DNA of 8,956 nucleotides, taken from a virus (taxonomy: Duplodnaviria > Heunggongvirae > Uroviricota > Caudoviricetes). The notes beneath the pieces are model-generated. The model saw nothing but the letters and a program-made list of their open reading frames with translations. It had not been told where the DNA came from and did not search any database. A program made the translations under genes and the position numbers. The stretch is taken from IMG/VR virus record IMGVR_UViG_2751185961_000010, one strand, 5' to 3'. Every line of letters begins with the position of its first letter. Position 1 is the stretch's first letter. Below, one piece after another: positions 5,537-5,955 of this stretch.

Positions 5537-5955
5537 AAAGCGCACCGAACTTAAAAAAACAGCCGCGAGGGAAAAAACACGCCGATACGGAAGTGATTAT
5601 TTTCGCTGGCAGTGATGCGTGGGCGCACGCGAAACAGTGGCAGGAGCAGGAGGGACGACTTGCAGGTGATGATGTTCCGCCAGTCGTGCTTTCTGATGAA
5701 CAACTTAAGGATATTGGCAATCTGAAAATTGTGCCCGACGGGCGCAAATCAGCGCGTATATACAAGGCCGGACACCTCGATCAGATGATGGTCAAAGGCA
5801 TCGGTCAGAAGCTGGCAGCCGCAGGTATACAGGTATACAGGATGCTGATTACTACCCTGAAGGAATGCACCACAACGAGCGGCAGAACTGGCGTAACTAT
5901 CTGGATATTGAACGCAAAAACATTTCTGACGGGCTGGTTATTGAGCTGCCTGTAA
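5533..5955 (+). CDS. toprim-like (primase-remnant) protein, 140 aa; probably catalytically degenerate; may be the N-terminal part of a frameshifted alpha-like gene
   Basis: TEVIIFAGSDAWAHA and KIVPDGRKSARIY parallel the DnaG / P4-alpha TOPRIM motifs (hhhhEGYxD ... YDGDRAG) but with Glu->Ala and the second Asp->Arg. The last ~30 codons overlap the helicase ORF out of frame and look non-protein-like. Confidence 0.5.
   Translation: MKSAPNLKKQPRGKKHADTEVIIFAGSDAWAHAKQWQEQEGRLAGDDVPPVVLSDEQLKDIGNLKIVPDGRKSARIYKAGHLDQMMVKGIGQKLAAAGIQVYRMLITTLKECTTTSGRTGVTIWILNAKTFLTGWLLSCL

Follow-up and report, generated by a model that had tools for sequence, protein, structure and literature searches.

In the phage-inducible chromosomal islands (PICIs) of Escherichia coli an iteron-containing origin of replication follows the pri-rep gene, and the encoded Pri-Rep variants have sequences that differ from that of P4 alpha (PMC6092414). 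Deletion of pri-rep reduces the transfer of such islands by 3-4 logs, and in EcCICFT073 transfer fell from ~1e5 to ~50 (PMC6092414). The conserved gene set of EcCIMP1-type islands comprises integrase, AlpA, PerC, Ash and DNA primase (PMC11773190). We analyzed a stretch of 8,956 nucleotides from a virus of the Caudoviricetes (IMG/VR record IMGVR_UViG_2751185961_000010), which is called the window in the following. Judged from its gene content, the window appears to represent a PICI-like integrative island including the replication module. As in Gram-negative PICIs of the EcCICFT073 and EcCIMP1 type, genes for an integrase, AlpA, antirepressor/Rha proteins, Ash and a 'DNA primase' are followed by a putative iteron origin, all on one strand. 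Unlike in these islands, the replication gene of the window carries a frameshift, its integrase is truncated and IS1 cuts into the island on either side. The window, which ends in IS1 after the gene for a single-stranded DNA-binding protein (SSB), contains no genes for packaging or capsid redirection.

The replication gene is represented by two open reading frames (ORFs) on the plus strand. The upstream ORF at 5533-5955 encodes 140 aa and its codons begin at 1 mod 3; the downstream ORF at 5865-7361 encodes 498 aa and is read in the frame whose codons begin at 0 mod 3. An initial annotation had described a toprim-like ORF overlapping an alpha-like helicase ORF, and had proposed either a frameshift mutation that split a single gene or recoding by -1 slippage. 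Our analysis indicates that 5533-7361 is very probably one gene broken by an 8-bp tandem duplication, an ordinary frameshift pseudogene and not a case of recoding.

Tandem duplication at 5822-5841 and its distribution

The two ORFs overlap out of frame at 5865-5955. The coordinates were confirmed; the overlap amounts to 91 nt with the stop codon counted, instead of the 90 bp given before. The helicase frame (frame 0) is open from position 5709, right behind the TAA codon at 5706-5708, and direct reading verified that no ATG, GTG or TTG codon occurs in this frame between 5709 and 5865. Within 5709-5865, the stretch in which both frames are open, Tandem Repeats Finder detected a perfect tandem repeat at 5822-5841 of the form CAGGTATA CAGGTATA CAGG (period 8, 2.5 copies, 100% match). 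At the duplicated junction the window carries CAGGTATACAGGTATACAGG. The initial annotation had overlooked this duplication, although it lies inside the interval described there.

The region 5533-7361 was compared with 5,426 complete E. coli genomes by megablast, and 584 genomes cover at least 80% of the query. The best match was found in strain JNEC-KY176 with 97.6% identity and a length of 1821 bp compared to 1829 bp in the window. In RefSeq the gene is annotated as one coding sequence of 606-607 aa ('DNA primase family protein') in JNEC-KY176, O145:H28 RM12581 and O157:H7 M1300706002. The indel was located, as had been suggested initially, by alignment with intact homologues. In a three-way DNA alignment with the E. 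coli relatives that come closest (97.6% and 93.9% identical), both intact genes show one gap of 8 columns whose position coincides exactly with a copy of CAGGTATA, and the flanks are collinear; each relative lacks exactly one copy. This places the 8-bp indel at 5822-5837, within the lesion on the plus strand that the repeat defines (5822..5841). In silico removal of 5822-5829 resulted in a 606-aa protein with 7 residue differences to the JNEC-KY176 protein. An insertion of 8 bases causes a shift of 2 mod 3, which exactly matches the offset between the two ORFs. The indel is not divisible by 3, it is located at a perfect tandem repeat and its removal restores the frame. Thus, the locus is best described as a frameshift pseudogene formed by tandem duplication, and the first of the two initial proposals, a frameshift mutation splitting a single gene, was borne out. 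Based on the single-CDS (coding sequence) homologues and the in silico repair, 5533..7361 on the plus strand is assigned as a pri-rep gene of the primase-helicase type. For annotation this means that both ORFs should be treated as one frameshifted pseudogene of the island replication protein, and neither as a toprim gene plus a helicase gene nor as a recoding site.

Slipped-strand mispairing at microhomology is known to generate frameshift pseudogenes, as at the classic lacI hotspot. The ancestral sequence CAGGTATACAGG contains CAGG twice, 8 bp apart, and offers a microhomology of 4 bp. These repeats make replication slippage between the two CAGG tetramers of CAGGTATACAGG the likely mechanism by which CAGGTATA was duplicated. 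The head-to-tail copy, the unit bounded by the 4-bp CAGG and the length that is not a multiple of 3 all agree with known short tandem duplications at microhomology, with no material difference, and nothing in the sequence speaks against an origin by duplication. This type of event is already known, and the locus is one more instance of an ordinary recent pseudogene. It can serve as an instructive case of an 8-bp duplication mediated by microhomology.

From codon 101 on, the insertion puts translation out of frame until a stop is reached at 5955, after 40 codons. The remaining 506 codons are left in the other frame with no proper initiation site before them. The N-terminal fragment ORF (5533..5955, plus strand) contains 100 native codons (5533-5832), 40 out-of-frame codons (5833-5952) and the TAA codon. 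Its out-of-frame tail (VYRMLITT...) is common to no homologue. The non-protein-like tail reported for this ORF is real, but it comprises 40 codons and not ~30. The C-terminal fragment ORF (5865..7361, plus strand) corresponds to residues 109-606 of the intact protein. The expected outcome would be a recent loss-of-function allele in an island whose two ends are likewise cut by IS1 and whose integrase is truncated.

A scan of one genome per species yielded 75 related loci. The same N-terminus was present in nine of them, all single ORFs of 583-617 aa, from Raoultella (2), Pluralibacter, Kluyvera (2), Escherichia ruysiae, Citrobacter, Klebsiella and Pectobacterium. Three more distant relatives of the N-terminal module from Haemophilus (30-35% identical overall) are single ORFs of 573-585 aa as well. 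The junction is read straight through in 11/11 aligned loci of these 12 (L077 was not aligned). An exact-pattern scan for the duplicated junction gave 0 matches among the GTDB species representatives, and a 121-nt junction query against the 5,426 complete E. coli genomes gave single-copy matches only, each of 113 bp. Two separate genes with the same overlap, which the initial annotation had named as evidence against a split gene, were found in none of the homologues examined; all are single ORFs.

Several candidates for a natural two-gene form were rejected. Short proteins annotated as 'DNA primase, partial' are mostly fragments at contig ends or independently broken genes with other tails, and none shows this break. 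The two features annotated at one locus (H6) turned out to be a small gene upstream and a CDS that is intact. In a metagenome-assembled genome (MAG) the locus L032 (1457-3878) consists of a P4-alpha-type primase ORF (351 aa, with the motif TEGYATAL) and a helicase ORF (472 aa) with an out-of-frame overlap of 53 nt. It is broken at a different place and in a different N-terminal module. The locus L061 (2183-2993) is cut off after 270 aa. Broken alleles are frequent among the relatives, since besides the split L032 and the truncated L061 a further gene, P0053, is frameshifted nearby. In a phage collection the sole match to the replication gene was a distant one, in a 16.5-kb 'induced prophage' record.

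An exact look-up of the 140-aa and 498-aa products found them only on Logan contigs of the sequencing runs SRR3581386 and SRR7500935. The SRR7500935 contig (L003, 3446 bp) corresponds to window positions 5304-8749 and the SRR3581386 contig (L004, 3353 bp) to 4784-8136. Both are 100% identical to the window with the duplication included, and each was reported in 2 samples. A search of the literature for the two run accessions gave no result. These observations bear on the possibility of a sequencing or assembly artefact, in which case the true genome would have CAGGTATA only once and the gene would be intact. In favor of this, the allele was seen only in short-read assemblies, and the window itself resembles a contig ending in IS1 repeats on both sides. 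However, the same duplication was assembled independently from the two runs in contigs with different end points, which renders an artefact very improbable. Furthermore, Illumina or de Bruijn graph errors do not typically take the form of an exact 8-bp tandem duplication outside repetitive sequence. The mutation is thus real and restricted to one lineage, or to one strain that was sequenced more than once.

Slippage of the kind that created a perfect tandem repeat can also shorten it again. The 8-mer might in this way toggle between one and two copies and act as a reversible on/off switch for phase-varying island replication. Such a switch is exceedingly unlikely, since the repeat has only two copies and these are restricted to a single lineage. 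Every other genome examined has one copy, and alleles with at least three copies were not seen; moreover, contingency loci usually have longer tracts. For the pseudogene itself, the comparison of the repaired gene with the nearest intact allele revealed 28 synonymous and 7 nonsynonymous codon differences and no second lesion. This ratio together with the lack of further damage points to purifying selection until recently, and the frameshift is consequently young.

Recoding and reinitiation considered as alternatives at the overlap

Programmed -1 frameshifting is known from overlapping bacterial genes such as dnaX, the insAB' genes of IS1 and the IS3 family. The locus resembles these systems in that the ORFs overlap at a -1 offset and the downstream ORF is without initiation signals of its own. 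Programmed -1 (or +2) ribosomal frameshifting could in principle join both frames into a full-length protein. The geometry suits recoding, since the upstream frame needs a -1 shift and the overlap spans 91 nt, and a run of A residues is present at 5916-5920. In contrast to the known systems, neither a slippery motif nor a stimulatory structure was detected, and the arrangement is not conserved. A search for X XXY YYZ heptamers gave no match anywhere in 5710-5950. The overlap RNA (5842-5960) folds at -23.2 kcal/mol compared to -23.16 for shuffled sequences (z = -0.01). The two-frame arrangement occurs in no homologue examined. As a weak candidate site for slippage CGCAAAAACA at 5913-5922 had been put forward. 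Its codons in the upstream frame, AAC GCA AAA ACA, do not make up a canonical X XXY YYZ heptamer, and the frame does not change there; the lesion is located at 5822-5837. A shift at 5913-5922 would moreover bring ~28 junk codons into the protein in place of the conserved segment DADYYPEGMH...NWRNYL, which is found across genera as DA.YYPEGMH..ENWR.YL. Taken together, recoding at this locus has a practically negligible probability, and the proposal of -1 slippage was abandoned.

The start codon of the intact gene, ATG 5533, is well furnished. A GAGG motif is located 6 nt upstream, and in the sequence ATGA the codon overlaps the stop codon of the DUF4222 gene located before it. For ATG 5865 the absence of a usable Shine-Dalgarno sequence, as reported initially, was verified. 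The motif AAGGA at 5860-5864, the sole Shine-Dalgarno-like motif near a start in a scan of 5710-5950, touches the ATG with a spacing of zero. No such motif was found upstream of the next in-frame start, ATG 6006.

A functional split of the gene was also considered. The helicase part would be produced from M156 (6006) or M109 (5865) by termination-reinitiation and would still drive replication from the origin in the absence of the N-terminal domain. The downstream frame has no further lesions and contains D5_N, the P-loop and Pox_D5 in complete form. M156 is located within the low-confidence linker between the N-terminal domain and D5_N, and the N-terminal module is separable in evolution as it is swapped among four NTPase types. 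On the other hand, neither start has a Shine-Dalgarno sequence; ATG 6006 lies 51 nt past the stop codon and ATG 5865 lies 88 nt before it. Apart from L032, which is split, and L061, which is broken, every complete locus checked joins the helicase module to an N-terminal module of some kind within one ORF. A recent pseudogene would be expected to show an undamaged downstream frame just as well. We therefore regard a functional split as improbable, with a small but real chance of being correct.

Two points weigh against a frameshift pseudogene as described above. The loss of function is deduced from the reading frames; the 498-codon frame is intact, and low-level reinitiation at ATG 6006 or 5865 might take place. 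In addition, SRR7500935 and SRR3581386 may represent the same strain, which limits the inference on the spread of the allele. A combined proposal would state that the split allele is alive via termination at 5955 and reinitiation at ATG 6006. It would then yield a helicase/ori-binding protein devoid of the N-terminal module, with the 8-mer as a slippage-revertible attenuator for the replication of the island and the N-terminal module as an adaptor not described so far. To this combination we assign only a slim chance.

Domains of the repaired replication protein

The repaired 606-aa protein was searched against Pfam. Three domains scored above the gathering threshold: D5_N at residues 163-292 (PF08706, E = 9e-14), a DUF5906 superfamily 3 (SF3)-type P-loop domain at 326-434 (PF19263, E = 1e-9) and Pox_D5 at 497-593 (PF03288, E = 2e-12). 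The 498-aa fragment holds all three domains of the helicase part, and the 140-aa ORF matched no Pfam family. TIGR01613 (P4-family primase_Cterm) reached 97.6 bits on the repaired protein, below its cutoff of 108.7. Residues 1-160 showed no Pfam match, no zinc ribbon and no EGYATA motif. Like P4 alpha, the protein contains D5_N, the SF3 P-loop and Pox_D5 in its C-terminal two thirds. Unlike P4 alpha, it starts with a module of ~130 aa for which none of the P4 alpha primase features was detected. The initial label 'alpha-like' consequently applies to the C-terminal two thirds and has to be withdrawn for the N-terminus, as far as a P4 alpha-type primase is concerned.

An AlphaFold2 model of the close homologue P0025 (89% identical; pLDDT 85) showed an N-terminal alpha/beta domain. 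The model contains strand 20-25, helix 29-43, strand 51-53, helix 55-59, strand 73-78, helix 84-96, strand 101-105 and helix 118-129, and the latter is followed by a low-confidence linker. According to this model the break after residue 100 would lie inside the predicted N-terminal domain and not at a domain boundary, with the loss of strand 101-105 and helix 118-129. Thus, neither fragment is predicted to have that domain whole. A Foldseek search of the N-terminal domain against the PDB gave nothing significant. The invariant residues of the module (..TEVIIFAGSDAW.., i.e. ...IIFAGSDAW...) have Ala at the position of the Toprim Glu and no conserved DxD, as judged by inspection and not by structural superposition. 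The term 'Toprim-like' therefore appears to denote a weak structural resemblance, which does not indicate primase activity. It is conceivable, though unlikely, that the N-terminal module is an undescribed degenerate Toprim-like adaptor which recruits, for example, a host or helper primase.

The N-terminal module of ~130 aa is rare. It was represented by 76 cluster representatives among 1.84 billion proteins and was always N-terminal. Its fusion partners are four unrelated NTPase cores, namely D5_N/DUF5906/Pox_D5, DUF927, AAA_25 (RepA-like) and VapE. Conversely, the same helicase core (~53% identical) is found in single ORFs of 775-817 aa in Xenorhabdus, Proteus and Photorhabdus, and these proteins have ~300-360 extra N-terminal residues. 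The primase motif TEGYATAL was present in both relatives whose N-terminus was read, the MAG locus L032 and L061, and L032 also has a zinc ribbon. Pectobacterium and Serratia have a third type of N-terminal module. As a side observation of wider relevance, a small N-terminal module that has no annotation is exchanged between PICI-type replication proteins whose helicase cores differ. Several GenBank entries of ~100 aa that represent pieces of the N-terminal module (cluster P0018-P0023) are named 'propanediol utilization protein, partial'. This name is supported by nothing we found and looks like a propagated misannotation.

Island genes, iteron field and IS1 ends

The tyrosine integrase gene (85..1149, plus strand) is cut by the left IS1 and lacks ~53 N-terminal codons, among them most of the arm-binding domain. 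It is followed on the same strand by the gene of an AlpA-family regulator at 1792..1995 (PF05930, E = 2.4e-20), two Rha-type regulators at 2060-3305 and an Ash-family protein at 4286-4804. The two Rha-family genes are adjacent, encode 171 aa and 245 aa and share 8 nt, and the first product scored below the Pfam gathering threshold; they may represent a duplicated or degenerate pair. The DUF4222 gene (5243..5536, plus strand; PF13973, E = 5e-24) directly precedes the replication gene, its stop codon overlapping the pri-rep start. This arrangement of DUF4222 and pri-rep recurs in JNEC-KY176.

Directly 3' of the helicase stop codon an iteron field (GTTCACC/GGTGAAC) extends from 7376 to 7595 with 9 exact copies in both orientations. 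All 9 exact matches of the window fall within this field and none elsewhere, compared to 1.0 expected by chance. The position and the density of the repeats suggest that the iteron field is the probable replication origin served by the pri-rep gene. Further downstream, an ORF of 149 aa (7649-8098) gave no Pfam match, and its stop overlaps the start of the SSB gene (8095..8535, plus strand; PF00436, E = 6.4e-17). Homologous E. coli islands go on with SSB, ProQ/FinO and PerC genes. In RM12581 a 149-aa single-stranded DNA-binding protein is the only gene product annotated between the primase gene and ProQ/FinO; it may be the counterpart of either the 149-aa ORF or the 146-aa SSB of the window.

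Both ends of the window consist of IS1 ends with the terminal inverted repeat toward the island. The left end at 1..98 (minus strand) is the exact reverse complement of 8724-8821, and the right end at 8724..8956 (plus strand) matches loci annotated as IS1-family transposases at 96-98% identity. A computed comparison paired 1-97 with 8725-8821, and direct reading of base 98 extends the pairing to 1-98 and 8724-8821. The left IS1 is inserted at 98/99 and the right IS1 cuts the island after the SSB gene. With these IS1 cuts and the truncated integrase, this copy of the island appears to be already disabled for excision, which fits a relaxed selection on the replication gene. The frameshift, the IS1 at both ends and the truncated integrase mark the island copy as immobilized and decaying, and this bears on inferences about satellite mobility for the strain. 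The inverted IS1 ends facing the island resemble the geometry of a composite transposon, and may just mark a short-read contig ending in repeats.
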